Position numbers and translations under genes: made by a program
The notes under the pieces: generated by a model
The model's database searches: none
What the model saw: only the letters and a program-made list of their open reading frames with translations
What the model was told of the DNA's origin: nothing
Shown here: positions 11,591 to 30,826 of the stretch, piece after piece
Numbering within the stretch: position 1 is the first letter of the stretch
How the letters are laid out: each line of letters begins with the position of its first letter
Assembly (NCBI RefSeq): GCF_016026235.1
Contig: NZ_CP065613.1
DNA: 64,000 nucleotides
Strand: one strand, 5' to 3'
From: Escherichia coli
Lineage (GTDB): Bacteria; Pseudomonadota; Gammaproteobacteria; Enterobacterales; Enterobacteriaceae

Positions 11591-11619
11591 AAAAGCCCGC
11601 TTTTATAGCGGGCTTTTTG
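11591..11619. terminator. Bidirectional terminator between asnU and cbl
   Basis: Hairpin aaaagcccgc ttttata gcgggctttt with T/A runs on both sides. Confidence 0.5.
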
Positions 11620-12570: not shown

Positions 12571-12671
12571 GGTAAACTCCGGGCAGTTCAGATATCCCGT
12601 TATTGTTAAAGTCTAACGCCCAGCATAACAAATAATAAAAACCCGCATCTTATTCCATCCCGATATAACGC

Positions 12672-13914: not shown

Positions 13915-13990
13915 TCCTCTGTAGTTCAGTCGGTAGAACGGCGGACTGTTAATCCGTATGTCACTGGTTCGAGTCCAGTCAGAGGAGCCA
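13915..13990 (+). tRNA. asnV: tRNA-Asn (GUU)
   Basis: Exact 76-nt tRNA-Asn sequence. Confidence 0.95.
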
Positions 13991-13997
13991 AATTCAA

Positions 13998-14027
13998 AAA
14001 AGCCTGCTTTCTAGCAGGCTTTTTGCT
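13998..14027 (+). terminator. Terminator after asnV
   Basis: Hairpin aaaagcctgctttctagcaggcttttt. Confidence 0.5.
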
Positions 14028-14045
14028 TTCTAATTACCAACGCTC

Positions 14046-14978: not shown

Positions 14979-15042
14979 CATGTCCCTTTCCTAAGTCGCG
15001 AAAGCTATCGGTTAAGTATAGCTTTTATCAGACTTTTCGTTT

Positions 15043-16122
15043 TTAACTGTTCAAATCAGAAGTCGTATTCCCCGGTAGAACAATTTTACTGGCAGCAAGT
15101 TCGCCCATGTTGTTGTATATCGCACAAGCAGCTTCGATGATGGGCATCGCCAGAGCTGCGCCACTCCCCTCACCTAAACGCATCTCCATATTGAGAAAAG
15201 GCTCCAGCCCCAAATGCGACAGCGCTATACGCGCCCCTTTTTCTGCCGACAGGTGAGAAGGAATGAGATACGGTTTGATTGCAGGAGACATCTGGCAGGC
15301 TGCGAGCGCAGCAGCATAAGAAAGAAATCCATCCAGCAACACGGGTAAACCGCAGGAAGCAGCGCCTAACATCACGCCAGCCATTCCGACCAAATCAAAT
15401 CCACCCACTTTTGCCAGAACATTAACGCCATCCTGCGGATTTGGCTGATTCAACGTAATCGCCCGGCGCACAACATCAATTTTATTAGCCAGTTTATCTG
15501 TCGGCAGGTTTGCGCCAATCCCAACCACTTCTTCAGGATCCCGGCCAGTGATTGTGCTGACTATTGCTGCTGCCGGTGTCGTGTTTGCCATCCCCAGTTC
15601 ACCTACACCAAACAGCGTGACACCGTTTTTTGCCAGCTCCCGCGTATAACATATGACGTCCAAAAGTAACTTTTCAGCCTGACGGCGACTCATTGCCGGA
15701 GCTGAAGCAATATTGCCGCTACCTCGTGCGACACGCATGTTGATAAGCCCGGGGATAGGCTCAGCAGTATCAATACCAACATCAATTACGTGGACGTTAG
15801 CGCCCGCTTGTGCTGCCAGCACACACACGCCGGTTGTTCCGCGGGTCATATTTTCAGCCTGAATGGCTGTCACTTCTTTTGGGGAAATAGCGACCCCTTC
15901 CTCCCAGACGCCGTGATCGGCACACATAACCAGTACCGCTTTTTTGCCCACATGCGGTATGCCATTCAACCCCGGCATTCCCGCCAGTTGTACGCCAAGC
16001 GCCTCCAGCCTTCCCAGGCTACCAACAGGTTTGAGTAACCCGTCAATATGCCGTTGTGCACGCGACATAGCGGCAGGATCGATGGCAGGGATCGTATTCA
16101 GTAAATTGGCAAGTGTTTGCAT
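15043..16122 (-). CDS. cobT: Nicotinate-nucleotide--dimethylbenzimidazole phosphoribosyltransferase
   Basis: 359-aa product; recognised as CobT. Confidence 0.9.
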
Positions 16123-16133
16123 GTCACGTCTCT

Positions 16134-16877
16134 TTATAGCAGTGCCAGCAGGAAGACCAGTTCACCAAGCTCTATGGCTGCTCCCAGCGTATCGCCGGTT
16201 TGCCCGCCCAGCGTACGTTTGAGAAGCTGACCGAGGATGAAAATCGCCACCATCGTCACCACCATAGCAGCCACACCATGCATACCCGGCAATAATACGG
16301 CAGCAAAAATAGCGGCTAAGCCGAGTGTGACGCAGGTTTGTCGCCCATCAATTTTGCCAATGAACACATTGCCAAGCCCTTCTTCCCGGGCATAACGATG
16401 ACGATACATCAATAATGCGGCAGTCCCGCGGCTGACCGCACATGCTGCCGCCAGCGATGCAAGGATCGGTTCGCCACGCAGAGCCAACTCGCTTAACACC
16501 AAAATCTTTGCCAGTACAACAAAAATCAATGCCAGACCGCCGTGGGTACCTAAACGGCTATCACGCATGATTTCCAACATGCGATCGCGGCTACGTGCAG
16601 AAAATACGCCATCACAGGTATCAGCGAGGCCGTCCAGATGGAATCCCCCGGTCATCAGCACCAGCACAAGTACGCTAAACAGTGCCGCCAGTGGTGCGCC
16701 ACACCATGCCTGCAGCACCATGAAGACCAGCCCGCTAATCGCGCCAAGCAATAATCCAATCAAAGGAAAAGTAATAATACCGCGAGAATAATGCTCGAAA
16801 TCCAGTCCCTGGGACCAGCGACGCGGTACAGGCAGACGCGTAATAAATGAGAGCATCGCCCAAAATAATTTACTCAT
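16134..16877 (-). CDS. cobS: Cobalamin (5'-phosphate) synthase
   Basis: 247-aa membrane protein from [16 protein letters not shown]. Start overlaps the cobU stop by 4 nt (ATGA), typical of translational coupling. Confidence 0.9.
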
Positions 16878-17419
16878 TTGATTTTTACTCCAATACCCGA
16901 AACCACCAGCCATACTTCATTTGCCGCAGCGGCCAACTGCTGATTTACCCGCCCGGCAATATCACGAAAATGTCGTGCCAGACGACTCTCCGGCACAATC
17001 CCCATTCCCACTTCGTTAGTCACTAATACAACCTTTGCGGGGCAACGTTGGCAGGCAGCAATCAACGACTGAATCTCAGCATTAATCGCCTGTTCCATCG
17101 CCTGATAATCCCATTCATCAGGGTCTTTATCGCCGCCATAATCAAACAACAGATTAGTCACCATTGTGGTAACGCATTCAAGCAACACAACCTCATTCGG
17201 GTTAATGTCTGCATGAATTAATTCATCAAGATGTTGCCAGCGCTCCACTGTGCGCCAGTGCTCCGGGCGGCCTTGCCGATGATGTTCTATCCGTGCAGCC
17301 ATCTCATCATCAAGGATTTGCGAGGTAGCGATATACAGAACCTGTGAAGAGTCCCCAATAAGCGCCTCTGCGTGGCGACTCTTCCCGCTCCGTGCGCCCC
17401 CCGTCACCAAAATCATCAT
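16874..17419 (-). CDS. cobU: Adenosylcobinamide kinase / adenosylcobinamide-phosphate guanylyltransferase
   Basis: 181-aa product with P-loop GGARSGKS; recognised as CobU. Confidence 0.9.
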
Positions 17420-18692
17420 ACCGACTCCTGATTCAAATGTATGATGGTATTCATTGAACAGAACAATGGATCCCCCACCGTTGCTGACCGCAAAACATTT
17501 ACGCGATTAATACTGCGCGTAATATAATTAAAAATCCAGCATTCTCAATCCATTACGAAATAAGATGGCATTACGGAATAGCCAGACTTTCTCGTGTTAA
17601 CGTCCGACAAAATGCGTCATTGACAGCGGTTTCTGTGGATTGACACATTTCATTCAGATAATGAATTAATGCTACTGCCGGAACAACCAGCAAACGGGCA
17701 TTGTGTTCTGAAATCCAGGCTATTGATTCAACGTCAGCGACAGATCTGCGCTGTAAAAGAACTTGTAAAACAACGTAATAGAATTATCCGGAATGGTGGC
17801 GACTATGCACTAGAACACCACAATTTCGCTCTCTCGGTAAGGCACTGTCACAGCATTCAACAGAATGTGACTTGCCAGATTTATTAGCGCCACCAGATGT
17901 TTAACCGGGTAACCACGACCCAGTCGGGGATATATTCCATCTTCTCGCTGACATCATCAAGAATAAAAAGGTTTATCACACTCAGAGCAACGTTCTTCAG
18001 CAGGCGGGATAATTCTTCAACATTTAAAAGATGTGTTATTAAAGGCATACAAACTGGACGTATTGTATTTTCTTTTGGTGGTTGACCTAAGGTAGCAGTT
18101 TATCCTGATGCGCTGAGATTTCTGTAATATCTACGTCAACATTCTCCTCGAATAGAAAATGCAGCCCCGGCAAGTGATTCACATTTTTTAACAAAACGTT
18201 GTTAGCGTGCCATTTTCAGAAGCTCTCCAAGAAAGCGAATTCTTTTCTCAAATTCTGCATTCTCAGACACAGCTTTCTACTCCATGGCAATGGCCCAAAT
18301 ACGAAGTTGCTCAGGATCATTAGTGGTGCTGAGAAGTTAAATAACCATGCGGAGTACCACTCGTCATCACGTATTTATATATCATGAAGCTATTGTTGTG
18401 TTTTGTACATCAGTAGATGTATTCTGATATACTCCTTTTGCTAGACATAACCTTTCACCTGCTTGCAAAGCTTCTGTGTTCTGACATTGCCAAATTGTTG
18501 CAATTCTGTATCCAGCCTTCTTTCAGTCATAGCTTCGGGCCGCGATAAGACTCACTGATCTGACCCTGATTCCTCTTGCAGACTTTATAGACCAATTAAA
18601 ATGCAGTTTCTGCAGGTCAACGTCTGACCATCATTGTCATCACTCTGGCCATTAGAGTAACCTTCTGCATTCATCCTTTTGTAAAAAGTTTA

Positions 18693-19335
18693 TAGACTGG
18701 CCCCCTGAATCTCCAGACAACCAATATCACTTAAATAAGTGATAGTCCTGATACAAGTTTTTAGAGTAGTCATTAGTGAACAGATAATTGTTAACTTAGA
18801 ACCAGTAAAATGCAAACGACGCACCACGCTGGGAAAATCGCTGCTATTCAGCAGAGTTTTGTACCGAGAATTGTGGCCAGCCACTTATTGCTCTCGCGTA
18901 AGCAGGTATCCCTATCGTTTACCAGTCCAGCACATCTTGTGGTCAGGCAGAAGAAGAGCAAACTGTTACTGGACTCACTGCATGCATGGTGGAGAAAAAT
19001 GCCACGCTATCCAAAAATCCAGACTGGGAGAATGGTTCAGCTGTGTACTGAATCAGTGGGGCGCACTCTGTTATTACAGTGTTGACGGTCAGGCGGAGGC
19101 AGACATAATGCCGCGGAAAAAGCCCTTTGTGCCATCTGTCTCGGAAATAAAAACTTTATGTTCTTCGGCGGCGAGCGCAGTGCACTGTTGTATGGGCTTA
19201 TCGGCACTTGCCTTCTGAACGACATTGATCCGGAAGCGTATCTGCGCCATATCCTGAGCGTACTGCCGGAATAACCTTCCAACCGTATTGATGAACTCCT
19301 GCCATGGAACGTAGCACTCACCAATAAATAAGCGT
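18693..19335 (+). mobile_element. Composite IS relic: IS2-type left end with decayed orfA, followed by the C-terminal fragment of an IS66-family TnpC
   Basis: 18693-18747 is identical to the first ~55 bp of the IS2 left end at 27064, then diverges. At 19150-19330 the translation KNFMFFGGERSALLYGLIGTCLLNDIDPEAYLRHILSVLPE ... DELLPWNVALTNK matches the conserved IS66 TnpC C-terminus. No intact ORF. Confidence 0.5.
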
Positions 19336-19360
19336 CAATACGGCACTCCGTTAACGCTGA

Positions 19361-20871
19361 TATGACTTTCCGTGTCAAACCGGAATCTCTAATTTTGACG
19401 ATTTTCTTTTTAGGTTTAATTCCCTGAGGGCGACGTAGCAGTAAATCCGACGGTGAATCACGCTGATATTCGCGGGTTGGATACCGCATTACAGAGGTCC
19501 GTCATATGAGCCTGCCACTTTCTTACGTCGCGAATCAGCTTTGTTCCGCCGTCGCCAAGCGCTAACGTGGGTTACTCTTGTACCGGGCTACGTCGCCTTC
19601 AGGGAACTGGTTATTCTCATTTTTTATTTGTGACATTGTGGTTGTTGTGCGACAGACATTGCTATTCGGCCCATATCCCAGATAAAACCCGCCAGCTCAC
19701 GTGCAACAGCAACAATTGTAATATTGACATTCTTTCCTTTGGCCTGAAGTTTTCGATACCTCTTACAAAGCCTGAGTTGAGCATCCCATGCTCTGTCAAT
19801 GACGGGGCGGGGTAAATTTTCCTGCCTTTTTGTATTGCCGGACTGATGCGTGCCGGATGACGGTAACTCCACGCTGCCTCGACCAATAGCTTTCTGGCAT
19901 AGCTGTTTCCGGCTTTGGTAATGCTGCCCTGATGTCTGCTTCCACCCGATGAATATTCTGATGGCGTGATACCAAACCATGACATCAGTTGTCGTGGATG
20001 TTCAAAACGGGTCAGATCACCCAGTTCAGAAATTAATCCAACCGCAGTAATAAACTGAATCCCTCGCATGGCTTGCAGCGCCTCTACTACCGGATACAGC
20101 CTCCATTCGGTAACGGCCTCCTTCAGGGCGGATTCCAGCCGTTCACATTGTGCCTGCCGGTCTTCTATTGTACGACGGTGTTCGTCAAAAGCTAATTGTC
20201 GCCAGGGACTTTCGAATGAGTATTTGCTGAGCCAGCGTCGGTGTGCAGGGCCCCAATCTGCTCGCCCGACATAATGGACCCCATGAACCAGAAGAAACGA
20301 TTTCAGACGTTGCCTTGCATGCCGTAAATCATCGCGGGCAGATGCCCATGCCCGGGCCAAATCCCGGAATGCCTCATCTTCAATGCCGGGTACGTAGACA
20401 GCAGAAAGATCTCCTGCACGCAGTGAACGCACAAGTCTGATGGCATCACGGCGATCGGTTTTAACCCGCTCCCCCGGTTTTTTCGGGATAAGTGAGGGGG
20501 CGCAGACCATGCAGTCAAAACCGGATTTCACCAGCCGACGATAAAGTCCATAACCACAGGGCCCCGCTTCATAAACGATACTGACCTGCGATGACTTTGA
20601 CCTGAGACGTTTACAAAGATTCTGAATATCAGTAGGTGATGTGCCAATTTTACCCATCAGTTCAACAGGTTCTGAATTGATAGCATAAGCGACAGTAATC
20701 GATTCTTTGTGAACATCTAACCCGACGTACAATGTGTTATTGTTGTTCATGCTGGCCTCCGTGGTGGAAATACCGGGGTGTAGCAACAGCTCACCCATGC
20801 GGCTCTGACAACGATGTTAACCCGCGTTAAATATCCCACGTTGGCCAGCATCTGTCTCACGGAAAGTCATA
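19361..20871 (-). mobile_element. IS110/IS1111-family insertion sequence (about 1.5 kb) bounded by 14-bp inverted repeats
   Basis: Perfect inverted repeat TATGACTTTCCGTG at 19361-19374 and its reverse complement CACGGAAAGTCATA at 20858-20871 enclose a single transposase gene plus about 290 bp of non-coding sequence on its 3' side. Confidence 0.6.
19662..20750 (-). CDS. IS110-family (DEDD-type) transposase/recombinase
   Basis: Product MNNNNTLYVGLDVHKESI... has the N-terminal DEDD/RuvC-like domain and the C-terminal transposase_20-type domain (…FGITPSEYSSGGSRHQGSITKAGNSYARKLLVEAAW…). Confidence 0.8.
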   Translation of the reverse strand: MNNNNTLYVGLDVHKESITVAYAINSEPVELMGKIGTSPTDIQNLCKRLRSKSSQVSIVYEAGPCGYGLYRRLVKSGFDCMVCAPSLIPKKPGERVKTDRRDAIRLVRSLRAGDLSAVYVPGIEDEAFRDLARAWASARDDLRHARQRLKSFLLVHGVHYVGRADWGPAHRRWLSKYSFESPWRQLAFDEHRRTIEDRQAQCERLESALKEAVTEWRLYPVVEALQAMRGIQFITAVGLISELGDLTRFEHPRQLMSWFGITPSEYSSGGSRHQGSITKAGNSYARKLLVEAAWSYRHPARISPAIQKGRKIYPAPSLTEHGMLNSGFVRGIENFRPKERMSILQLLLLHVSWRVLSGIWAE

Positions 20872-20988
20872 CTGCCTTACCTTTTCTCAGGCTATTTTTG
20901 CTTTTTTTTGCTTTTCCCCGCCACTTTATGGTGATTATCACATCAATATACATCGATAGATATTAACGTAACTGAAGTGAGGTGAAGC

Positions 20989-22203
20989 ATGAAATTTGAA
21001 CGCCATCATGAAATATTGAAACGACTCAGTAAATTCGGTTCTGTAAAAGTATCCGATCTGTCCAATAGCCTCAATGTAACGAAAGAAACTATTCGTTCAG
21101 ATCTTAATGAACTTGCCAGGCTTGGCTATCTGACTCGATGTCATGGCGGTGCTTTTATCGTCCTAGACTCGCTTGATACTATTGCGAAAAATGAAATCGC
21201 TTATGCGCTTGAAAATTATGATACAGCCCAGGGAATAAAAAAAGGCCACTCAACTATGAAAAGTCAAGTATGCGTTATTGGTTCGTTTAATGTTGATATC
21301 ATCAGTTATTTGCCGAGGCTTCCCACTATCGGAGAATCGCTTCTGGCAAGTAATTTTATATTTTCACCGGGGGGAAAAGGCTGTAACCAGGCGCTGGCAG
21401 CAAGCTTTGCCGATACTGATGTTTATTTCATAACAAAAGTAGGTACAGATCACTTTAGTGATTATGCGATCAACTTTATGAATTCGTCTAAGATTTATAA
21501 AAGTATAATTTATCAAACGAAAGAAACGCAAACCGGAACTGCCACGATCCTTGTTAATGAAGGTACTGGCGATAATGTTATTGCGATCTATCCCGGTGCC
21601 AACATGACAATGTCGTCCGATGAAATAACTATTCAGAAAGAAGCGATTATTAATTCTGATGTCATACTTCTGCAGCTCGAAACAAATTATACCGCTCTGC
21701 AACAAGCGATCACATTGGCGCAAAAAAACAGTATCCCGGTCATTATTAACCCGGCACCCTATAATGATATCGTCAACGAACTTATTCAGGATGTTGATTA
21801 TATCACCCCCAATGAAACAGAAGCTGGTTTACTGTCCGGCATAGACGTACACGATCTTGAATCAGCTAAACGAGCTGCAGAAGCTATCCACAATAAAGGG
21901 GTAAAAAACACGGTTATCACGCTCGGTAGCAAGGGCTCGCTCGCATTTGATGGCAAAAAATTCATTCATTCGCCAGCGTTTCCAGCGGTCGTTAAAAATA
22001 CGGCAGGAGCCGGGGATGCGTTTAACGGCTCTCTGGCATCAGGACTTGCGAAAGGAAAATCACTGGAATCAGCACTGTGTTATGCCAGCGCCTTTGCATC
22101 CCTAGCGGTGGAGACAAGCAATGCTTCCGACATGCCTGAACATGAATCTGTGATACATCGAATTCAGAGTATACATTATCAGCAAACTATTTTTACGCAT
22201 TAA
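20989..22203 (+). CDS. Fusion protein: N-terminal DeoR-type HTH domain plus PfkB/ribokinase-family carbohydrate kinase
   Basis: Single 404-codon ORF. Residues 1-60 look like a DeoR HTH (VKVSDLSNSLNVTKETIRSDLNELARLGYLTR). The remainder carries both PfkB signatures (GGKGCNQA and AGAGDAFNG). Confidence 0.7.
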   Translation: MKFERHHEILKRLSKFGSVKVSDLSNSLNVTKETIRSDLNELARLGYLTRCHGGAFIVLDSLDTIAKNEIAYALENYDTAQGIKKGHSTMKSQVCVIGSFNVDIISYLPRLPTIGESLLASNFIFSPGGKGCNQALAASFADTDVYFITKVGTDHFSDYAINFMNSSKIYKSIIYQTKETQTGTATILVNEGTGDNVIAIYPGANMTMSSDEITIQKEAIINSDVILLQLETNYTALQQAITLAQKNSIPVIINPAPYNDIVNELIQDVDYITPNETEAGLLSGIDVHDLESAKRAAEAIHNKGVKNTVITLGSKGSLAFDGKKFIHSPAFPAVVKNTAGAGDAFNGSLASGLAKGKSLESALCYASAFASLAVETSNASDMPEHESVIHRIQSIHYQQTIFTH

Positions 22204-22216
22204 GAAGGGACAGAGA

Positions 22217-22975
22217 ATGAATAACACCAAAAAATCACTAAAAGTGCTCTTTATTGGGGAATCCTGGCATATTCATATGATTCATTCAAAAGGATATGAC
22301 AGTTTTACCTCAAGTAAATATGAAGAAGGTGCGACCTGGTTACTCCAGTGTCTGAAAAATAGTCAGGTAGATGTCACCTATATGCCAGCACATACGGTAC
22401 AAATTGCCTTCCCTGAAGATGTGGCACAGTTAGAACAATATGATGCCATCGTTATTAGTGATATTGGTAGTAATACTTTCCTGCTACAAAATGATACTTT
22501 TTATCAGCTTCGCATAAAACCAAACGCTCTCGAACTGATTAAAGAATATGTGAATAACGGTGGTGGGTTATTGATGATTGGCGGCTATCTCTCATTCATG
22601 GGAATTGAAGCAAAAGCCAATTATAAAAATACAGTTCTGGCTGATGTGCTCCCGGTTACGATGTTAGATGGTGACGATCGTGTCGAAAAACCAGAGGGTG
22701 TTATTGCACAGCCATCACAACCTGAACATCCAGTTATTAAAGGGTTCTCTGAATATCCTTTTTTCCTAGGTTATAACCGGGCGATCGCTAAAGAAAATGC
22801 TGAGGTGGTATTAACAATAAACAACGCTCCATTACTGGTCTTTGGTAACTATCACAACGGGAAAATAGCCTGCTTTATGAGTGACTGTTCACCGCACTGG
22901 GGTACACAGCAGTTTATGTCCTGGCCGTTCTATACCGCGTTGTGGGTAAATATACTGACTCATATTGCAAGATAA
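22217..22975 (+). CDS. Hypothetical protein (possible class-I glutamine-amidotransferase-like / ThuA-like fold)
   Basis: 252-aa ORF 14 bp downstream of the kinase gene. Fold assignment comes only from the overall pattern (VLFIGESWH..., NGGGLLMIGGY) and is weak. Confidence 0.35.
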   Translation: MNNTKKSLKVLFIGESWHIHMIHSKGYDSFTSSKYEEGATWLLQCLKNSQVDVTYMPAHTVQIAFPEDVAQLEQYDAIVISDIGSNTFLLQNDTFYQLRIKPNALELIKEYVNNGGGLLMIGGYLSFMGIEAKANYKNTVLADVLPVTMLDGDDRVEKPEGVIAQPSQPEHPVIKGFSEYPFFLGYNRAIAKENAEVVLTINNAPLLVFGNYHNGKIACFMSDCSPHWGTQQFMSWPFYTALWVNILTHIAR

Positions 22976-23031
22976 TAATAATAATGGGGTAACTCCAGTT
23001 ACTCCATTTACTATAATAGAAGGATTGATGT

Positions 23032-23997
23032 ATGAAAAAGAATAAGTACTCAACTCCCTTATGGATGCTTGCCACGATTCTTGCGGGTATGCTCTCCCCT
23101 ATGCAATCAGCGGTGAATGGTCAATTAGGTCACTGGTTACAGGATGGTAATGCATGCGCAGTTATCTCCTTTGCCAGTGGTTTAGTCGTGATGTTTTTTA
23201 TTATTATGGCGCGAAAAGAAACCCGGCAACAATTTGCGGCAATTCCTTCTCTGATTAAAAACCGAAAAGTTCCTCTCTGGAACTGGTTTGCCGGTCTCTG
23301 TGGAGCGATGGTGGTATTTTCTGAAGGCGCATCAGCCAGCGCACTCGGGGTCGCAACGTTTCAAACCGCACTGATCTCCGCGCTATTGCTGTCTGGTTTA
23401 CTTTGCGATCGCTTTGGTATCGGTGTCGACGAGAAAAAATACTTTACCCCTTATCGCATCATCGGTGCATTATTTGCGGTTATTGCTACGATTTTTGTTG
23501 TGTCACCTCAGTGGCATTCTACCTCTTTCATCTTACTTGCCATTCTTCCGTTCTTAGCTGGTTTGCTTGCAGGATGGCAGCCCGCTGGAAATGCAAAAGT
23601 AGCTGAAGCTACGGGATCCATGCTGGTTTCAATCACCTAGAATTTCATCGTTGGATTTTGTGTTTTAGGCACAGCGCTAGCTATTCGTGTCGCATTAGGG
23701 CACGTCACTGTTCAATTACCAGATGTCTGGTGGATGTATCTTGGCGGCCCGCTTGGACTAATGTCTATCGGTTTAATGGCCATTTTGGTCAGAGGTCTGG
23801 GGTTACTGATGCTGGGGGTTGCTTCAACGGCGGGCCAGTTACTGGGATCAGTATTGATTGACGTATTAATTCCATCGCTGGGCAATAGCGTTTATCTGGT
23901 CACGATCATCGGAACACTGTTTGCACTGGTCGGTGCAATTGTTACCACTATTCCGGAATACAGAACCTCGAAAACAATGAAGAAAATGGAGGTATAA
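23032..23997 (+). pseudogene. DMT-superfamily (tandem DUF606 / YdcZ-like) inner-membrane transporter interrupted by an in-frame amber codon
   Basis: ORFs 23032-23640 and 23734-23997 are in the same frame. The intervening codons read on as membrane-protein sequence (...NFIVGFCVLGTALAIRVALGHVTVQLPDVWW-MYLGGPLGLMSIGL...) once TAG at 23638-23640 is read through. Confidence 0.55.
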
Positions 23998-23999
23998 TC

Positions 24000-25034
24000 A
24001 TGAAAGATTATCTACAAACTGTGACGGGCCCCGTCGCCCGTGAAGATATGGGGCTAACACTTCCTCATGAACATCTGTTCAACGATCTTTCCTCTGTTGT
24101 GGATGCTCCTTGCTATCCTTTTTCACAACGGCTTGTTGATAAAAAAGTCACGGCAGAAATCCAGTGGGCATTAAAACACGATCCTTATTGCTGCGCTGAT
24201 AATATGGACCGCAAACCTATTGAAGATGTGATCTTCGAAATTAATAACTTTATCTCGCTCGGTGGTCGCACCATTGTTGATGCCACAGGGTCTGAGTCTA
24301 TCGGACGAGATGCGCAGGCATTACGAGAAGTCGCATTAAAAACAGGTCTGAATATTGTTGCTTCCTCCGGTCCCTACCTGGAAAAATTTGAAAGCCAGAG
24401 AATTCATAAAACGGTTGATGAACTGGCGACAACGATCGATAAAGAATTGAATCAAGGGATTGGCGATACGGATATTCGTGCCGGAATGATCGGTGAAATA
24501 GGTGTTTCACCGACATTTACCGAAGCCGAGCATAACAGCTTGCGGGCTGCCTCGCTGGCACAGATTAACAATCCTCATGTGGCGATGAATATTCACATGC
24601 CGGGCTGGCTTCGTCGCGGTGATGAAGTACTCGACATTGTGTTAGGTGAAATGGGCGTCTCGCCAAATAAAGTCTCTCTCGCACACTCGGATCCGTCAGG
24701 AAAAGACGTGGCGTATCAGCGGAAAATGCTTGATAGAGGTGTCTGGCTGGAATTCGACATGATTGGCCTAGACATTACCTTCCCGAAAGAGGGAATAGCG
24801 CCAGGGGTGCAGGAGACTGCCGATGCCGTCGCTCATCTCATTGAGTTGGGATACGCCGATCAGCTTGTTCTCAGCCACGATGTCTTCCTTAAACAAATGT
24901 GGGCTAAAAATGGCGGTAATGGCTGGGGATTTGTTCCAGATGTTTTTCTGGCCTATCTGGCGGAGCGCGGCGTCGATAAAACGATCCTCAAAAAACTCTG
25001 TATCGATAATCCCGGACGATTATTGACCGCATAA
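24000..25034 (+). CDS. Phosphotriesterase-family (PTE/Php-like) metal-dependent hydrolase
   Basis: 344-aa product with the N-terminal metal-binding motif TLPHEHL and overall amidohydrolase/PTE layout. Confidence 0.75.
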   Translation: MKDYLQTVTGPVAREDMGLTLPHEHLFNDLSSVVDAPCYPFSQRLVDKKVTAEIQWALKHDPYCCADNMDRKPIEDVIFEINNFISLGGRTIVDATGSESIGRDAQALREVALKTGLNIVASSGPYLEKFESQRIHKTVDELATTIDKELNQGIGDTDIRAGMIGEIGVSPTFTEAEHNSLRAASLAQINNPHVAMNIHMPGWLRRGDEVLDIVLGEMGVSPNKVSLAHSDPSGKDVAYQRKMLDRGVWLEFDMIGLDITFPKEGIAPGVQETADAVAHLIELGYADQLVLSHDVFLKQMWAKNGGNGWGFVPDVFLAYLAERGVDKTILKKLCIDNPGRLLTA

Positions 25035-25043
25035 AACCATTAT

Positions 25044-25066
25044 CCCCCGGCACATTGCGCCGGGGG
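25044..25066. terminator. Bidirectional terminator between the PTE-like gene and the ggt remnant
   Basis: Perfect hairpin cccccggcacattgcgccggggg. Confidence 0.45.
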
Positions 25067-25073
25067 ATGTCAA

Positions 25074-25410
25074 TTAATACCCCGCCGTTAAATCATCCAC
25101 CAAGCGCGAGTCGGATGCGCCGTACAACTCACCATCCGACCCAACCATAATGCTTTGCGTGCTGCCCAACACCTCATTCAGCGCCACTTTCTGACCTTTT
25201 GCTTCCAGCAGCTTGAGCGTATCCGGACTAACCCCTTTTCAACACGCAGCTCGTCCGGCAACCACTGATGGTGGAAACGAGGCGTATTGGTCGCTTCGGC
25301 AACATTCATTCCACAATTGATGCTGTTCACCACCATTTGCAGCACGGTAGTGATGATCCAGCTACCGGTAACAAAGTGAGTACATAAAGGCCATACTGTC
25401 ACGAACAGTG
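25074..25410 (-). pseudogene. 3' remnant of a gamma-glutamyltranspeptidase paralogue, truncated by the ISL3 element
   Basis: Minus-strand translation gives the GGT C-terminus ...IITTVLQMVVNSINCGMNVAEATNTPRFHHQWLPDELRVEKG and ...ALNEVLGSTQSIMVGSDGELYGASDSRLVDDLTAGY with one frameshift. It ends at the ISL3 inverted repeat at 25411. Confidence 0.55.
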
Positions 25411-25685
25411 CAAAAGTGGCTCTTCCGCAACCTAGGTGAAGATTTTCATGCCAGTGGACTCATTACCCTCCGCCTAAGTAGTTCAAGTCCGGCTCGACCA
25501 TACATCTGGCGTATCAGCACCTTCAGGCGATTTACATGACCTTCGACAACACCAGTACTCCAGCGACTGCTGATTGCCTCACGTATAGCCGCAGCATCAG
25601 CTTCCATCCCCGCAGCTACGCACCGAAGTTCTGCTGAGCCGCTTTCGTGGACCCGAGTGAACCAGCTGCTTAGCTGTGATTTATT

Positions 25686-27063
25686 TTAGGTTTTCAGAAT
25701 ACGGTAGAACTCGAGTACCAGTTGCTGCGCTATTTTCAACTCCGGTTCTTTTTCACACATCAGACTAATAAATCGGAAAGCATAATTTTCTTCACCCCTG
25801 ATTATTCTCCGGGGCATCAACCAGCGGCTTACCCGGGACACTGAAGGAAGTCTTGCGGCAGTAGTAACCGGTGGGATCCAGCCTTTACGCCATTTGGCAA
25901 CAGCATCCCTGACGATGGTTTCACTGCCTGTAACCCCCCTGGCCACCATTTCCCGCCATATCCGGCCGGAGTTATAATTACCACATTCTCGTTGCTCTTT
26001 TAACCACTCCCTCCATGGGTCCAGAAGCCCTCGCTTTGGAGGCCTAGTTGACATTTCAGGGAATGTTCCTGAACCCACCCAGCGACTGACTGTCACTCGC
26101 GACAGGCCTGTAATACGGGATATTTCCCTGAAACTACATCCCTTGTTATGCAGGGCCATAACCTCTGTCCAACGCTGATGCCGTTTTTTGCGGGTGTGCT
26201 GTTTAAGGCGTTCCAGACGACGGAGCGATGCTACAGGCACAGATATTTCTGGCTCAGGTGATTTCTTCAGTGATAACTCTCTGACAACAAGACGTATCAG
26301 AGGCATATGTCTGTACATCATTCGTTCAGGCTCATCACCAATATTTTTTAGCAGGTGCCATCGATAGGCCACCTGTCTGGCCTGAGGTGCACCTTCACGT
26401 GCTGCTGTCGCATAGACTCCACTGCGATCACGCGATACAACCTGTATTTCCGGACCTTTTCTGAACCAGGTCGCCAGCGTACGCTGATCACGGCCGGGAA
26501 GCAGGACCAGGGGGCGGTGAGTATCAAGATTGAATATTAACGTACCGTAACGGTGGCCCCAATGCCACGCCCACTCATCAATACCGACATGAGGCGCGCC
26601 TGACTGTTTCGTCTCCGGGGTATTGATAAGCCTGCGAAGAAGAGTATCAGCACTGCAACGGAGACCCGCTGCCGTTGCAGCCCGTTTTCCAGCCTCACCT
26701 CCAGCTATTAATCCCAGTTGACGTTGTTAATTTTGTAACGCCTGTGAAGACTGCTGGTGTGAACTGGCGAAGGGAGCAAGCGACTCGGCAAAAATTTTAC
26801 GTGACAAGCCGGGTTACGGCAGTACCAGTGGCGGACGGAAAATACAAGCCATAGCGTCTGCCCTGAGCAGGGTAGATGCTGTATCCGGCGCCGACGACAA
26901 CTATGAACAGAGTCGCTACGCTTAAAGCATTCAGGACATTGTGCTGTTTTGCGTTTTCCGTGGAGATGGAGGGTTATACCGTCAGAGCTAATAATTTGTC
27001 GACTGCATCGCCATCCGCAAGGTAACTTTAGAAGTGTCTTAAGAGAGTGCATTGCGTTGCCCA
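25686..27063 (-). pseudogene. ISL3-family transposase, frameshifted; its start region is separated from the body by the IS2 insertion
   Basis: N-terminal zf-ISL3-like region (...CPECFKRSDSVHSCRRRRIQHLP...RHWYCRNPAC), a central part in another frame, and a C-terminal part (…YRWHLLKNIGDE…). The first two codons (ATG GGC) lie beyond the IS2, at 28395-28400 on the minus strand. Confidence 0.6.
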
Positions 27064-27155
27064 TTAGACTGGCCCCCTGAATCTCCAGACAACCAATATC
27101 ACTTAAATAAGTGATAGTCTTAATACTAGTTTTTAGACTAGTCATTGGAGAGCAG

Positions 27156-27521
27156 ATGATTGATGTCTTAGGACCGGAGAAACGCAGACGGCGTACTACA
27201 CAGGAAAAGATCGCTATTGTTCAGCAGAGTTTTGAACCGGGAATGACGGTCTCCCTTGTTGCCCGGCAACACGGTGTGGCAGCCAGCCAGTTATTTCTCT
27301 GGCGCAAGCAATACCAGGAGGGAAGTCTTACTGCTGTGGCCGCAGGAGAGCAGGTCGTTCCTGCCTCTGAACTTGCTGCTGCCATGAAGCAGATTAAAGA
27401 ACTCCAGCGCCTGCTCGGCAAAAAAACGATGGAAAATGAACTCCTTAAAGAAGCCGTTGAATACGGGCGTGCAAAAAAGTGGATAGCGCACGCGCCCTTA
27501 TTGCCCGGGGATGGGGAGTAA
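27156..27521 (+). CDS. insC: IS2 OrfA (InsC)
   Basis: [56 protein letters not shown]... recognised as InsC. Confidence 0.85.
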
Positions 27522-28384
27522 GCTTAGTCAGCCGTTGTCTCCGGGTGTCGCGTGCGCAGTTGCACGTAATTCTCAGACGAACCGATAACTGGAAAGATGG
27601 TCGCCGCAGCCGTCACTCAGATGATACGGATGTGCTTCTCCGTATACACCATGTTATCGGAGAGCTGCCCACGTATGGTTATCGTCGGGTATGGGCGCTG
27701 CTTCGCAGACAGGCCGAACTTGATGGTATGCCTGCGATCAATGCCAAACGTGTTTACCGGATCATGCGCCAGAATGCGCTGTTGCTTGAGCGAAAAACCG
27801 CTGTACCGCCATCGAAACGGGCACATACTGGCAAAGTGGCCGTGAAAGAAAGCAATCAACGATGGTGCTCTGACGGGTTCGAGTTCCGCTGTGATAACGG
27901 AGAAAAACTGCGAGTCACGTTCGCGCTGGACTGCTGTGACCGTGAGGCACTGCACTGGGCAGTCACTACGGGCGGCTTCGACAGTGAAACAGTACAGGAC
28001 GTAATGCTGGGAGCGGTGGAACGCCGCTTCGGCAACGAGCTTCCGGCGTCTCCAGTAGAGTGGCTGACGGATAATGGTTCATGCTACCGGGCTAATGAAA
28101 CACGGCAGTTTGCCCGGATGTTGGGGCTTGAACCGAAGAACACGGCGGTGCGGAGTCCGGAGAGTAACGGCATAGCAGAGAGCTTCGTGAAAACGATAAA
28201 GCGTGACTACATCAGTATCATGCCTAAACCAGACGGGTTAACGGCAGCAAAGAACCTTGCAGAGGCGTTCGAGCATTATAACGAATGGCATCCGCATAGT
28301 GCACTGGGTTATCGCTCGCCACGGGAATATCTGCGGCAGCAGGCCAGTAATGGGTTAAGTGATAACAGGTGTCTGGAAATATAG
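27479..28384 (+). CDS. insD: IS2 OrfB (InsD, DDE transposase)
   Basis: 301-aa product overlapping insC in the -1 frame (programmed frameshift arrangement of IS3-family elements). Confidence 0.85.
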
Positions 28385-28518: not shown

Positions 28519-29274
28519 TTAACTCGTTTTTTCGCTGCTTTCCACTGTCGGGGGATTTTTCCTCAGGGACTCTCCCTGAAGGACCACTCTGTGTGAGTTA
28601 TGTACCAGTCTGTCCAGGATGGCATCTGCTGTTGTTGGGATTTCCATCAGACCATGCCATTTATCTACCGGGAACTGGCTTACCACTATCGTGCTGCTTT
28701 GTCCGTAACGATCCTCTATGATCTCCAGAAGGTCATTACACTGGGCGTTACTTAACTGTTCCAGCCCCAGATCGTCCAGGATTAGAACCTGTATTTTTTG
28801 CAACTGTTTCAGATATTTCAGCCAGCTGCCATCAACACGTCCCTGAGCCAGCTGTTCCAGTAATCGCCCGGTTCTACTGTACCGGACGCTGTATTTCTGT
28901 CGACATGCCTGTTCGCCCAGCGCATTGGCTATCCAGCTCTTACCGCATCCTGTCGGACCGGTTATCAGCAGGTTTTTCCTGTGGATTATGTAGTGACCGT
29001 TCAGCAGCTCCCTCATCTGTTCAGCCCGCAGACCTCTTGAGGCCGGATAACGCAGCCCTTCCGGTGTTGCCTGGTATTTCAGGCCGGCATTTTTTCTCAA
29101 CCGTGCCACACGACTGTTTTCTCTGCTCAGAAGCTCGTCATCAACCAGCAGTGTCAGCCTTTCCTCGAAAGACAGCTCGTCATAGGTCTGAGGCGTTTCC
29201 CGCTGCCGTATCAGGCTCCCGGCCATCGCCGGGAGTTTCAGTTGGGTCAGTTTGTTTAACAGGTTATCACTCAT
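28519..29274 (-). CDS. istB: IS21-family helper ATPase IstB
   Basis: Walker A GPTGCGKS and IstB-like layout; start MSDNLLNKL. Confidence 0.8.
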   Translation of the reverse strand: MSDNLLNKLTQLKLPAMAGSLIRQRETPQTYDELSFEERLTLLVDDELLSRENSRVARLRKNAGLKYQATPEGLRYPASRGLRAEQMRELLNGHYIIHRKNLLITGPTGCGKSWIANALGEQACRQKYSVRYSRTGRLLEQLAQGRVDGSWLKYLKQLQKIQVLILDDLGLEQLSNAQCNDLLEIIEDRYGQSSTIVVSQFPVDKWHGLMEIPTTADAILDRLVHNSHRVVLQGESLRKNPPTVESSEKTS

Positions 29275-29290
29275 ACTGTTGTTCCTTTTG

Positions 29291-30826
29291 TCAGTGGTAG
29301 TAGCCCGGGCCACGCAGGTTTTCATGCTCTGAAGCATATGCCGGATGTTGTTCGCCCTGGCGGGATAATGGAAGCTCAAGGTTTTCCCGATGGTGACGCA
29401 GCAGATTGTCGATAAAGCGTCTGTCCGGGGCGTTATAGTGCAGGGCAACGTAACAGGCCTTTTCCAGCCGTTCCGGGCCGTATTTTTTCTGAAGAGCCAG
29501 CAGCCCCAGGACTGCACGGTAAGCCAGTTCCGGATGGGGTTTTGCCTTCAGCATGGATTCAACCACCCGGCCAGTGGACGGGCCTGTACGTTTTCCCTGC
29601 CCGATAAGGCGTTCCGGTGTCCATGTCCCGTGCCGCCGGTGGCGCTCTGGCATGTGAAGCGGATTGGTTGTGTGTTTATATTCATGTGTGCTGCGCGGAT
29701 GTTGCGCCACACACTGCCCCTTGTGCCAGAGTTGTACCACAGACTGCCCCGCCTTCAGTGACAGACGCTGACCGACCAGTTCGTGTGGAACGGAGTACCA
29801 GTGACGGGCATATTCAACGTGATAGTCAGGGCCAACCTTCACGGCTTTGTATTCCGTGTATTCATAAGGTGCCAGAGGCAGCGGAGAGAGTGCTGGCGCA
29901 TCCAGCATGCGGAAGCGTTCTGCACGGGTTTGATTGCCGTACCCCTTCATTGGCCGGTTATTCATGTCCATCAGTAACTCCCGAAGGCGCGCATTCAGCG
30001 CCCTGAGCGTGTGGAAGGTTTCATTACGGATGCGGGCAAGAAGCCATCGTTCGACGATGAGGACGCCGTTTTCTGCTTTTGGTTTATCTTTAGGTTTGCG
30101 CGGGCGGGCCGGGATAATAACCGTGCCATAGTGCTCAGCCAGCGCCTGATAACTGTCGTTGATGACAGGCTCATAGCGATCGGCTTTTTTGACTGCACTT
30201 TTGAGATTATCGGGGATGAGCAGCTTCGGCACGCCGCCCAGGAAGGTCAGGCAACGGCTGTGGGCATTTAACCATGACATCATGTCCTGACCTTCGCACG
30301 CTTCAACGTAGGTATAGTTGGATGCCTCCATCACGGCCACGAAGATTGCCACGCGGCGTATCTCTCCGGTGTCCGGATTAATAACAGGAACCGTAGGACC
30401 GCAGAAGTCGATAAAGAGCTTTTCGCCGGCACGATGCTCCTGGCGCATGGAGAGGCGTCGCGTTTTTTTCCACTCCCGGTAGCAACGGCAGAAGTGCGAG
30501 TATCCCATCGCTTTGTCACCCGCCTGTGCCTTGTATTCCATCCACAACAGCTGGCGCGTCACGCCCGGTTTTCTCATTTCCGTATCGAAGTACAGCATGT
30601 CAGGCATAACAAGCTCTGACGCAGAGGTGTCTTTGGGCGGGTAAATGAGTTTCTCCAGCGTGTCATGGGATATATCAGCAGGTAATGGCCATGACAGAGA
30701 AGAGGCTTTGAAGCGTGCAAGAACCTCAAAAACGGTTGAGGCGCTGATGTGTAACGTCAGTCCGATACAACGGTTAGTCAGCTTCTGGTCGAACTTGAGC
30801 TGAAGGATCTTAAAACAGGTTTCCAT
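29291..30826 (-). CDS. istA: IS21-family transposase IstA
   Basis: N-terminal HTH followed by a DDE domain (…LFIDFCGPTVPVINPDTGEIRRVAIFVAVMEASNYTYVEA…); start chosen at METCFKILQ. Confidence 0.8.
   Translation of the reverse strand: METCFKILQLKFDQKLTNRCIGLTLHISASTVFEVLARFKASSLSWPLPADISHDTLEKLIYPPKDTSASELVMPDMLYFDTEMRKPGVTRQLLWMEYKAQAGDKAMGYSHFCRCYREWKKTRRLSMRQEHRAGEKLFIDFCGPTVPVINPDTGEIRRVAIFVAVMEASNYTYVEACEGQDMMSWLNAHSRCLTFLGGVPKLLIPDNLKSAVKKADRYEPVINDSYQALAEHYGTVIIPARPRKPKDKPKAENGVLIVERWLLARIRNETFHTLRALNARLRELLMDMNNRPMKGYGNQTRAERFRMLDAPALSPLPLAPYEYTEYKAVKVGPDYHVEYARHWYSVPHELVGQRLSLKAGQSVVQLWHKGQCVAQHPRSTHEYKHTTNPLHMPERHRRHGTWTPERLIGQGKRTGPSTGRVVESMLKAKPHPELAYRAVLGLLALQKKYGPERLEKACYVALHYNAPDRRFIDNLLRHHRENLELPLSRQGEQHPAYASEHENLRGPGYYH

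Follow-up and report, generated by a model that had tools for sequence, protein, structure and literature searches.

A rikA-type four-gene cassette on an Escherichia coli island, possibly a module for a ribose-containing conjugate

The analyses of a 64,000-nucleotide stretch of Escherichia coli DNA (the window) identify four co-directional genes which, on the basis of sequence comparison, are the E. coli orthologue of the Salmonella locus rikA(STM3547)-STM3548-STM3549-STM3550, described by McCormick, Jabbar & Escalante-Semerena (Mol Microbiol 2026, PMC13432705). We give an even chance to the proposal that this cassette is a catabolite-controlled module for some ribose-containing conjugate. The first-pass annotation had recognized no named operon here, and this has to be modified, as the cluster can now be named after its Salmonella orthologue, the rikA-STM3550 locus, and the four-gene cluster has been stated to be conserved, with Escherichia among the listed genera (PMC13432705). 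RikA biochemistry, orthologue structures, and the published conservation together mean that the locus is already known.

Distribution and genomic setting

All four genes are present on the + strand as initially described, three of them as intact open reading frames: gene 1 (20989-22203, 404 aa), gene 2 (22217-22975, 252 aa), and gene 4 (24000-25034, 344 aa). The claimed tight spacing is also real, but the gaps of 14, 57, and 3 bp given for it were coordinate differences, and the genes are in fact separated by 13, 56, and 2 bp. Of 5426 complete E. coli genomes, 1907 have the identical four genes in identical order, with 80% or more of their length present, and the same order was found in Salmonella, Citrobacter, Klebsiella, Budvicia, Providencia, Proteus, and Orbus. 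This recurrence in E. coli and other genera indicates that the arrangement is not due to chance, and the co-occurrence beyond the source strain, on which the first-pass annotation had let its proposal depend, is thereby upheld. At the nucleotide level, collinearity with Salmonella and Citrobacter spans positions 20894-25367, beginning 95 bp before gene 1 and running into ggt.

The cassette was correctly placed between an IS110-type element and an ISL3/ggt remnant, as both flanks were found. Upstream lies an ISSso6-like IS110-family transposase frame (19662..20798, − strand), recognized from the list of open reading frames and from the 99.8% identical locus L002, where it is annotated as "IS110-like element ISSso6 family transposase". 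From position 20876 onward, the window again matches E. coli copies of the island that lack the IS, which puts the end of the IS-derived sequence at about 20875, with 113 bp between it and the ATG of gene 1. Downstream, a 294-bp 3′ remnant of the gamma-glutamyltransferase gene ggt (25074..25367, − strand) contains one frameshifting gap and shares 90.8% identity with native E. coli ggt and 80-82% with ggt of Salmonella and Citrobacter; judged from sequence, it is the leftover of the native arrangement found in Salmonella, where the cassette lies between yhhY and ggt. A GC-rich hairpin with a 12-bp stem (25042..25068), detected by a terminator scan between the convergent gene 4 and ggt remnant, is likely a terminator common to both. 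The ggt remnant is bounded by an ISL3-family transposase remnant with internal stops on the − strand (approximately 25443..27062, as mapped from locus L001), with open reading frames at 25686-26372 and 26708-27145, and "ISL3 family transposase, internal stop" is annotated at the equivalent place in L001, L002, L091, and L092. The reported AT-richness is real but modest, with a GC content of 43.9% for the cassette versus 49.4% for the remaining window (41.6, 39.9, 46.5, and 47.6% for genes 1 to 4).

The four gene products and signs of decay

The domain calls made at first sight were right, as Pfam assigns HTH_DeoR and PfkB domains to gene 1, PF07090 to gene 2, a DMT domain to gene 3, and a PTE domain to gene 4. 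The assignment of gene 1 (20989..22203) as rikA orthologue is based on Pfam, NCBIfam, an RbsK alignment, and the identity to Salmonella, which is 80% in the HTH and 72-81% in the kinase part. A DeoR-type HTH (residues 5-56) is connected by a linker to a PfkB ribokinase domain (residues 92-382), which reaches 284.2 bits with the NCBIfam ribokinase model TIGR02152 (cut-off 299.65) and also weakly matches the fructoselysine 6-kinase model. Residues N101, D103, G129, K130, N133, E231, and D343 align with N14, D16, G42, K43, N46, E143, and D255 of RbsK, and all ribose-contacting residues are kept in this alignment; D343 is the catalytic aspartate (GAGD, 340-343). Experiments in vivo and in vitro established the Salmonella orthologue, RikA, as a ribose kinase, which when encoded on the chromosome permits growth on ribose, by far its best substrate among pentoses, with a Km of 2.0 mM and a kcat/Km about 50-fold lower than that of RbsK, and whose D343A variant is inactive; its authors consider that the ribose kinase activity is possibly moonlighting (PMC13432705). 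With the native ribosome binding site in Salmonella, the protein began at Met90 and thus without the HTH, and only this Met90-start kinase was detected (PMC13432705). Gene 1 has its internal Met90 codon at 21256-21258. All 20 orthologues and paralogues compared keep the HTH region in frame, with dN/dS values of 0.02-0.09 in unsaturated pairs, close to the kinase domain value, and by this measure the HTH part evolves under purifying selection.

Gene 2 (22217..22975, + strand) encodes a PF07090 "GATase1-like" protein with 81% identity to its orthologue STM3548 (PDB 2GK3), with the fold of the class I amidotransferase/ThuA type, lacking the nucleophile Cys. Across phyla, PF07090 proteins share 58-83% identity and some 80 invariant columns, including H20, H23, D82, E131, D223, C224, and H227, and from this conservation the protein looks like an enzyme. 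Gene 2 of the window carries a D204A exchange at a position kept in at least 90% of the family.

Gene 3 (23032..23997, + strand) belongs to the YdcZ-type transporters of the DMT superfamily, with two PF04657 repeats detected by Pfam in the intact allele. The first-pass annotation overlooked that its reading frame is interrupted by a stop directly behind residue 202: codon 203 (W203, window 23638-23640), which is TGG in the intact allele of E. coli ATCC 25922 (321 aa), is changed to TAG, and gene 3 is therefore a pseudogene in this genome. The TAG allele is found in 599 of the 2037 E. coli genomes that have this stretch, and PGAP labels it "internal stop" in other E. coli genomes. Due to this nonsense codon, the module probably does not work as a whole here, and the transporter loss by W203* in combination with D204A in gene 2 suggests that it is probably decaying; only a back-up ribokinase activity of RikA may be left.

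Gene 4 (24000..25034, + strand) encodes a binuclear metallo-hydrolase of the phosphotriesterase family within the amidohydrolase superfamily (Pfam PTE), with the metal ligands H23, H25, E166, H199, H229, and D294 as aligned to PTE. By position and sequence, it is the orthologue of Salmonella STM3550 and of Proteus mirabilis Pmi1525 (PDB 3RHG/4QSF; E = 1e-174 with 3RHG), which has 100% identity to the fourth gene product of the Proteus cluster and matches the gene 4 product at 74% identity. As related in PMC5341072, Pmi1525 acts as an esterase that cleaves model esters and is stimulated by metal ions (Xiang et al., Biochemistry 2015, PMID 25873441), which says little about physiology. Gene 4 stays far under the curated NCBIfam cut-offs for phospho-furanose lactonase, OPH, and Php.

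Regulatory elements and proposed function

Two conserved elements precede gene 1, and both are found upstream of every orthologue compared. The first is a T-rich direct repeat, TTTTGCTTTTTTTTGCTTT (20896..20914, + strand), with two TTTTTGC-type units 10 bp apart, which is unique in the window even if two mismatches are allowed (0.01 expected). Each of 17 loci from 6 genera has a single copy, always upstream of the rikA orthologue; the Proteus motif is a variant, and Providencia and Proteus have 2-5 copies. We regard it as a candidate operator to which full-length RikA would bind through its DeoR-type HTH. The second is a CRP-like site, TATGGTGATTATCACA (20927..20942, + strand), of the pattern TGTGA-N6-TCACA, which encloses the palindrome GTGATTATCAC (20931-20941) and may provide catabolite control. 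Its right half-site TCACA is at the same position in 16 of 16 type A upstream regions, including that of the window, and five SPI-2-type paralogues have TGTGATTGAATTCACC or TGTGATTCATTTCACC there. A Shine-Dalgarno sequence, GAGGTG (20979..20984, + strand), lies 4 nt ahead of the annotated ATG, and GTGAGGT is kept in the Salmonella and Citrobacter upstream regions. A consensus promoter scan upstream of gene 1 gave no + strand match, with neither a −10 element nor a transcription start located, and BioCyc predicts two operons for the region.

In a sample of 87 PF07090 loci, a ribokinase-type PfkB adjoins PF07090 in 74, an M20 deacylase in 46, PTE in 34, DMT in 27, and sugar-type ABC transporter components in 49-56. 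PF07090 nearly always has a hydrolase partner, and an amide/ester hydrolase plus a transporter is usual. The equivalent clusters of Bacillota contain RbsB/A/C-like ABC transporters with RbsB-like binding proteins and LacI-type regulators, and in Propionibacterium, Streptomyces, and Corynebacterium the set PF07090-DMT-PTE is found again next to a LacI-type regulator, with no kinase adjacent. Since the partner hydrolases are mixed, comprising PTE, M20, an alpha/beta-hydrolase, and a protein resembling ureidoglycolate lyase, the clusters need not all serve a single class of substrate.

The initial idea of a compact catabolic module for a sugar-like compound fits this comparative and regulatory evidence. 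In our model, the DMT/YdcZ transporter would import a ribose-containing conjugate, which the PTE-family metallo-hydrolase and the PF07090 enzyme would break down by ester or amide cleavage, and RikA would phosphorylate the freed ribose at O5 for the pentose-phosphate pathway. Full-length RikA probably autoregulates its promoter via its HTH on the T-rich repeats, and the CRP-like site would subject the locus to catabolite control.

A redundant locus for plain ribose, in which the DMT protein imports free ribose for phosphorylation by RikA, with genes 2 and 4 as functionally unrelated passengers, would agree with RikA alone sustaining growth on ribose and clearly preferring it among pentoses (PMC13432705), with the conservation of every ribose ligand in the gene 1 alignment, and with the RbsB-like binding proteins of the Bacillota transporters. 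We consider it unlikely, as the catalytic efficiency of RikA on ribose is low, PF07090 almost always has a hydrolase partner, and the order PF07090-DMT-PTE is kept across Proteobacteria and Actinobacteria even without the kinase, which argues that these three act on one substrate.

Phospho-sugar lactonases have been reported among other cog1735 members (Lmo2620, Bh0225, and mycoplasma enzymes), and a pathway in which the kinase acts on a pentonolactone and the PTE-like enzyme is a phospho-sugar lactonase could draw on the complete binuclear site of gene 4 within PF02126, its weak NCBIfam match to phospho-furanose lactonase, and the PfkB kinase in the same cluster. That match, however, stays at 42 bits where the cut-off is 630, the kinase is active on ribose and has the canonical pocket for it, and no role would be left for PF07090 or for the M20 and alpha/beta-hydrolases that stand in for PTE elsewhere, which makes this pathway quite improbable.

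For the lactone or detoxification function that the first-pass annotation had also offered, we found no specific support, and detoxification, with hydrolysis of xenobiotic esters or phosphonates by the PTE-family enzyme and export of the products by the YdcZ-type DMT protein, is the least probable reading, as the PF04657 name "putative inner membrane exporter", the model-ester hydrolysis by Pmi1525 (as summarized in PMC5341072), and a methylphosphonate esterase named in the title of a paper are opposed by the conserved CRP-like site, the ribokinase, and the LacI/DeoR-type sugar regulators and sugar-uptake ABC systems of equivalent clusters, all pointing to catabolism, and by a search of defence and resistance profiles that gave no match.

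Comparison with known systems

The closest known system is the rikA-STM3550 locus of Salmonella LT2, which shares with the cassette the gene set, the order, the spacing logic, protein identities of 72-95%, the conserved upstream 95 bp, and the convergent orientation with ggt. Unlike in Salmonella, the E. coli cassette is not in the yhhY-ggt slot but on an IS-ridden island beside cobU, with only the 294-bp ggt stub, and in the window a nonsense codon interrupts the transporter gene and the IS110 element lies 113 bp upstream of gene 1. Pmi1525 and gene 4 have all six metal ligands in common and are both fourth in the same four-gene cluster; the one activity cited for Pmi1525 in PMC5341072 is a promiscuous one on model esters, and the RikA paper (PMC13432705) draws no link between this work and the locus.

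A paralogous cassette is orf408-orf245-orf32-orf48 of Salmonella SPI-2, beside ttrBCA. Orf408 (408 aa) is an HTH_DeoR-PfkB fusion 45-50% identical to gene 1, orf245 (245 aa; STM1381, PDB 3SOZ) is a PF07090 protein 64% identical to gene 2, a hydrolase and a transporter come next, and a CRP-like site is likewise located upstream. In contrast to the E. coli cassette, the hydrolase is an alpha/beta-hydrolase of the proline-iminopeptidase family instead of PTE, and the transporter is an APC amino-acid-type permease instead of DMT. With the E. coli rbs operon (rbsDACBKR), the cassette shares a PfkB ribokinase with the same ribose and catalytic residues, but it has neither RbsD nor an ABC transporter, its regulator is fused to the kinase, and its PF07090 and PTE enzymes have no rbs counterpart.

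In frlABCDR of E. coli and fraRBDAE of Salmonella, a transporter, a trimming hydrolase, a PfkB kinase, and a conjugate-splitting enzyme serve a sugar-amino-acid conjugate. The cassette would resemble these loci in logic, as a functional analogy; it differs from them in having no deglycase or SIS-domain protein and a ribose-type kinase pocket. NadR and BirA are enzyme-repressor fusions with an N-terminal HTH on an active small-molecule kinase or ligase, and by analogy the HTH-kinase fusion of RikA may couple substrate occupancy to putative DNA binding.

The rikA-type cluster and its interrupted transporter gene

The four co-directional genes at 20989-25034 (+) of the window match the rikA-STM3550 cluster of Salmonella in their order, with an HTH_DeoR-PfkB protein followed by a PF07090 protein, a DMT protein with two YdcZ repeats, and a PTE-family hydrolase (Pfam, tblastn neighbour matrix). 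In the ORF listing, gene 1 (20989-22203, +, 404 aa), gene 2 (22217-22975, +, 252 aa), and gene 4 (24000-25034, +, 344 aa) are intact, and translation of gene 3 (23032-23997, +) gives a broken frame that stops after residue 202. The genes are separated by 13, 56, and 2 bp, and a terminator scan found a strong hairpin solely 3' of gene 4. With one direction, short gaps, and one terminator, the layout is that of an operon; for the Salmonella region, BioCyc predicts two operons. The cassette has a GC content of 43.9%, versus 49.4% in the remainder of the window, and the values are lowest in genes 1 (41.6%) and 2 (39.9%). A cassette GC that lies 3-7 points below that of the flanks is found in Escherichia, Salmonella, Citrobacter portucalensis, Klebsiella, and Budvicia, whereas cassette and flanks agree in Proteus, Orbus, and Citrobacter amalonaticus. 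The first-pass annotation had described an AT-rich cassette of four co-directional genes, which it did not recognise as a named operon, and its description of the genes stands except for the nonsense codon in gene 3, which had been overlooked. PADLOC defence profiles gave nothing for genes 2-4, and for gene 1 just weak generic wHTH matches (E >= 3e-4).

Where the gene 3 allele of E. coli ATCC 25922 (321 aa) has TGG at codon 203, the window has TAG (23638-23640) and therefore does not contain the four intact genes of rikA-STM3550. The intact allele has two PF04657 YdcZ repeats at residues 10-154 and 169-303 (Pfam), of which the first repeat alone is left in the window allele. The 61-mer containing the TAG has a perfect match in 599 of the 2037 complete E. 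coli genomes with this stretch, which rules out that W203* is private to the window genome or to a Shigella-like lineage, and PGAP labels the W203* copies in other E. coli genomes as 'internal stop'. The W203* lineage also has the exchanges A348S in gene 1 and D204A in gene 2, a combination that may stem from a single clonal lineage or from decay that is tolerated. Uptake has probably been lost in the window through W203*, and W203* together with D204A makes it likely that the locus is decaying there. Single-repeat YdcZ proteins exist, and the 202-aa product, which keeps one complete YdcZ repeat, may have residual function. The transporter is the best-conserved of the four proteins: the E. coli protein is 95% identical to that of Salmonella and 84% identical to that of Proteus (tblastn neighbour matrix, for example comparison loci L003, L011, and L021). 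Its higher identity is unusual, as the soluble cassette enzymes reach 72-87% (E. coli/Salmonella) and 66-74% (Proteus).

At least 80% of the cassette is covered in 1907 of 5426 complete E. coli genomes, and many other E. coli genomes hold fragments only, such as the 3' part of gene 4 with the ggt stub. Conservation of rikA-STM3550 has been described for Citrobacter, Escherichia, Budvicia, and Proteus (PMC13432705). In Salmonella, the cassette has yhhY on one side and a complete ggt, in convergent orientation, on the other, and this slot is occupied by tssD-yrhA-yrhB in E. coli. In the window, it is preceded by an IS110-family transposase ORF (19662-20798, -), which is ISSso6-like according to the annotation of a 99.8% identical E. 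coli locus, and followed by a 294-bp ggt stub (25074-25367) and an ISL3 remnant. The region 20894-25367 is collinear with Salmonella and Citrobacter, including the control region and ggt, at 75.5-76.7% nucleotide identity, and the ggt stub has 90.8% identity to the native E. coli gene versus 80-82% to ggt of Salmonella and Citrobacter. Because the stub is nearer to E. coli ggt and the cassette has only about 76% identity to Salmonella and Citrobacter, these identities suggest that the island took the cassette and the ggt piece from an Escherichia-like donor with a Salmonella-type yhhY-ggt arrangement.

Several observations concern the surroundings. Upstream of the island, there is a yeeJ-cobUST core with three tRNA-Asn(GTT) genes at 9683-9758 (-), 11507-11582 (+), and 13915-13990 (+); genes of this kind are classical sites of island integration. 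For positions 1-19358, the best match among complete E. coli genomes is just 98.4%. Directly past the ISL3 remnant, an IS3-family ORF pair (27111-28384, +) and an IS21-type IstB-like ORF (28519-29517, -) are found; the part of the island that follows there in other E. coli genomes carries zinc-ribbon genes and genes of the inovirus Gp2 family. Among the E. coli sequences that match 25000-49000 are genes for Ag43/Cah autotransporter adhesins as well as IS21-like ISEc12 elements, and the ORFs at 43252-45554 (-) may represent an IS21-like element that perhaps interrupts an adhesin gene. An Rfam match to IS102 sRNA at 41014-41250 lies just 5' of, and overlaps, a 666-aa ORF (41194-45554 region). 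Further sites are an STnc240 sRNA match at 59220-59294 (-) and, in Rfam, a histidine operon leader at 62033-62156 (131.6 bits) directly 5' of an ORF that starts at 62164.

The kinase, the PF07090 protein, and the hydrolase

Gene 1 encodes an HTH_DeoR domain (PF08220, residues 5-56, E = 5e-15) and a PfkB domain (PF00294, residues 92-382, E = 1e-64); the DeoR_C effector-binding domain was not detected by Pfam, and the C-terminal part is the PfkB kinase. The protein scores 284.2 bits against the NCBIfam ribokinase equivalog TIGR02152, slightly under the cut-off of 299.65, which is cleared by the partner kinase of Paenibacillus (300.1 bits). The catalytic Asp is kept in the motif GAGD (340-343, with D343 corresponding to RbsK D255), and a phmmer alignment to 1GQT matched N101, D103, G129, K130, N133, and E231 to RbsK N14, D16, G42, K43, N46, and E143, which we take to be the ribose contacts, following the list of Sigrell et al. 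(1998). The A348S exchange of the window allele is five residues past D343. The Salmonella orthologue STM3547 was named RikA in a 2026 paper, in which the purified protein had a Km of 2.0 mM and a kcat of 337 per min with ribose, used other pentoses poorly, and was inactive as a D343A variant (PMC13432705). By orthology with the Salmonella enzyme, ribose kinase activity is predicted for the gene 1 protein of the window.

When Salmonella RikA was produced from its native RBS, it started at Met90 and thus lacked the HTH (PMC13432705). We found a strong Shine-Dalgarno sequence, GAGGTG, before Met1 of gene 1, whereas the one before Met90 is merely weak. Met90 is kept only in Escherichia, Salmonella, Citrobacter, Budvicia, Klebsiella, and Orbus, and is missing from Proteus, Providencia, and most type B paralogues (described below). 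The HTH region and the kinase share one frame in all 20 of 20 genes, and the HTH codons have dN/dS values of 0.02-0.09 in unsaturated pairs, close to that of the kinase domain; dS is saturated in most inter-genus pairs, and dN/dS is informative for closer pairs only. From these comparisons, we conclude that the HTH of the rikA product is, to all appearance, translated and under selection in nature, with the Met90 product as a possible second isoform. The proposal of a regulator-kinase fusion made in the first-pass annotation is therefore upheld by the in-frame HTH and its low dN/dS.

The gene 2 product belongs to PF07090 ('GATase1-like', Pfam), is 81% identical to STM3548 (PDB 2GK3), and has a class I GATase-like fold. 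The elbow after the central strand reads M-I-G-G-Y124-L-S-F, with a Tyr that is invariant family-wide and no nucleophile Cys of the G-x-C-x-G type. As this Cys is missing, a true glutamine amidotransferase can be ruled out, and the RefSeq name 'glutamine amidotransferase' refers to the fold only. Conservation of the family is unusually high: homologues in Enterobacterales and Bacillota are 58-83% identical to the window protein, and about 80 columns are invariant, including H20, H23, K25, D28, E36, E37, H59, and D82, as well as E131, D154, R155, E157, D223, C224, and H227. D204, which is exchanged to Ala in the window, is at a position with at least 90% conservation across the family. A literature search on DUF1355, PF07090, STM1381, and GATase1-like retrieved no functional study of the family.

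Gene 4 encodes a member of the phosphotriesterase family (PF02126, E = 2e-46, Pfam) within the amidohydrolase superfamily (cog1735). Alignment to the PTE motif residues showed a complete set of binuclear-metal ligands, H23, H25, E166, H199, H229, and D294, with a Glu (E166) where PTE has a carboxylated Lys; by standard PTE numbering, we take the matching residues to be H55, H57, K169, H201, H230, and D301. NCBIfam cut-offs ruled out an assignment as OPH (84 bits versus 500), as Php (108 versus 486), or as phospho-furanose lactonase (42 versus 630). The protein is 74% identical over 344 aa to Pmi1525 of Proteus mirabilis (PDB 3RHG/4QSF), which in turn is 100% identical to the fourth gene product of the Proteus type A cluster. 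According to the summary in PMC5341072, Pmi1525 has metal-stimulated esterase activity on model substrates (Xiang et al.). The RikA authors stated that they found no studies on homologues of STM3548-3550 apart from the 2GK3 structure (PMC13432705), and the Pmi1525 work has thus not been linked to the locus. Our literature search for PMI1522-1524 found nothing.

The upstream control region

The 95 bp 5' of gene 1 are conserved in E. coli, Salmonella, and Citrobacter, and the sequences farther upstream are unrelated. A comparison of 20 orthologous and paralogous upstream regions brought out T-rich direct repeats at 20896-20914, a 19-nt element of the form TTTTGYTTTTTTTTGSTTT that is conserved 5' of rikA in six genera. 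It occurs only once in the window even when 2 mismatches are permitted (0.01 expected), and one copy per locus, each time 5' of rikA, was found at 17 loci of these genera (L001-L003, L009-L020, L091, L092). The repeat of Proteus is a variant, and 2-5 copies with a 10-bp period are present in Providencia and Proteus. The repeat gave no match to known RNA or DNA elements and is a candidate operator for RikA.

The comparison of the 20 regions also revealed a CRP-like site, TATGGTGATTATCACA, at 20927-20942, to which CRP may bind. Its TCACA half-site is found in 16 of 16 type A regions, and the SPI-2 paralogues have the half-site TGTGATTGAATTCACC. The palindrome GTGATTATCAC had been considered as a DeoR operator, and this was dropped when the comparison identified it as part of the CRP-like site. 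An Rfam search of 20780-25200 gave no RNA family at E <= 1, which means that no known riboswitch or leader accounts for the conserved block. A scan for consensus sigma-70 promoters found none on the + strand 5' of gene 1, with counts not above those of shuffled sequences.

Related clusters and a possible function

PF07090 relatives were detected in 415 genomes in a scan of species-representative genomes, and the neighbourhoods of 87 loci were examined. Type A, with HTH-PfkB, PF07090, DMT, and PTE, is present in E. coli, Salmonella, Citrobacter, Klebsiella, Budvicia, Providencia, Proteus, and Orbus, with a variant in Succinivibrionaceae in which PF07090-DMT-PTE is followed by PfkB in some cases. 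Type B, found in Salmonella SPI-2 beside ttrBCA and in Citrobacter, consists of HTH-PfkB (408 aa), PF07090 (245 aa), an alpha/beta-hydrolase of the proline-iminopeptidase family, and an APC permease. Its first two genes in SPI-2 are known as orf408 (HTH_DeoR-PfkB) and orf245 (PF07090; PDB 3SOZ = STM1381), the paralogous cassette lies at L004:6763-11055 beside ttrBCA, and the same kind is found at L037, L038, L043, and L049. Both orf245 and orf408 are listed in a Tn-seq paper among the genes needed at pH 3 (PMC8653844). In Bacillota, type C/D clusters combine LacI, a ribokinase-type PfkB, PF07090, M20 deacylases of the ArgE/DapE type or PTE, an RbsB/A/C-like ABC transporter, BtpA/SgcQ, and a second PfkB. 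Type E of Paenibacillus has LacI, ribokinase, ABC transporter, a distant ureidoglycolate-lyase-like protein, M20, and PF07090. The nearest non-proteobacterial relatives of gene 4 are actinobacterial, with 60-64% identity, and in Propionibacterium freudenreichii, Streptomyces, and Corynebacterium caspium they belong to clusters of LacI and PF07090-DMT-PTE that have no kinase. At the 87 loci, the neighbours of PF07090 are PfkB (74), ABC ATPase (56), ABC substrate-binding protein (49), M20 deacylase (46), PTE (34), and DMT (27). There are thus two cores: PF07090-DMT-PTE, whose order is kept across phyla, and PF07090 with a ribokinase, which is the commonest pairing overall. As a side observation, a second, distant PTE-family gene (22-23% identical) is located on the opposite strand a few kb from the cassette in Klebsiella huaxiensis (L009:3393-4406) and at L019; it neighbours a creatininase-family gene, galactitol-type PTS EIIA/IIB/IIC, and an SIS protein, and looks like part of a separate sugar-derivative locus.

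The RikA authors considered it possible that the cluster encodes a four-protein pathway by which an unknown carbon source is used (PMC13432705). From the anatomy of the cluster and its genomic context, we infer a module under catabolite control that handles a conjugate containing ribose. This conjugate would enter through the DMT protein, the PTE-type hydrolase and the PF07090 enzyme would take it apart, and ribose would be captured last, by RikA. Partner hydrolases in other clusters are N-acyl-amino-acid deacylases, a proline iminopeptidase-like enzyme, and carbamoylase-type amidases, and the partner transporters are ribose-type ABC systems or an amino-acid permease, which hints, as a guess, at a conjugate of the sugar-amino-acid or ureide type. 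One rival explanation is a plain ribose system that is redundant. It is favoured by the finding that chromosomal rikA by itself gave growth on ribose in a delta-rbsK delta-deoK strain, and it is disfavoured by a kcat/Km of RikA for ribose about 50-fold below that of RbsK (PMC13432705). A phospho-sugar-lactone pathway is the second rival, and a detoxification or efflux cassette the third. If the conjugate module is extended to all cluster types, a possible though on balance unlikely picture is that of one widespread module of Enterobacterales, Succinivibrionaceae, Bacillota, and Actinobacteria, in which the invariant PF07090 protein would be an enzyme of a new kind and, together with metallo- or serine hydrolases that can replace one another, would free ribose from unrecognised natural conjugates (such as ribosyl- or ribulosyl-amino acids or ureides), full-length RikA would be a kinase-repressor on the T-rich 10-bp repeats, and the SPI-2 paralogue would act on a related host- or gut-derived compound.

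The cluster is present in roughly one in three complete E. coli genomes and in the majority of Salmonella, Proteus, and Providencia. Its substrate, if found, would give a function to the orphan PF07090 family, whose members are 58-83% identical across phyla, and a physiological role to the structurally characterised Pmi1525, and might point to a nutrient niche in the gut or the urinary tract. For the window, the result is a known accessory locus with a dead transporter gene within an IS-rich island. In comparison with what is known, the locus has already been described and is in part inactivated here, and the present analysis adds the connection with Pmi1525, the paralogue in SPI-2, a PF07090-DMT-PTE core that spans phyla, conservation of the control region, and the evidence for selection on the HTH.
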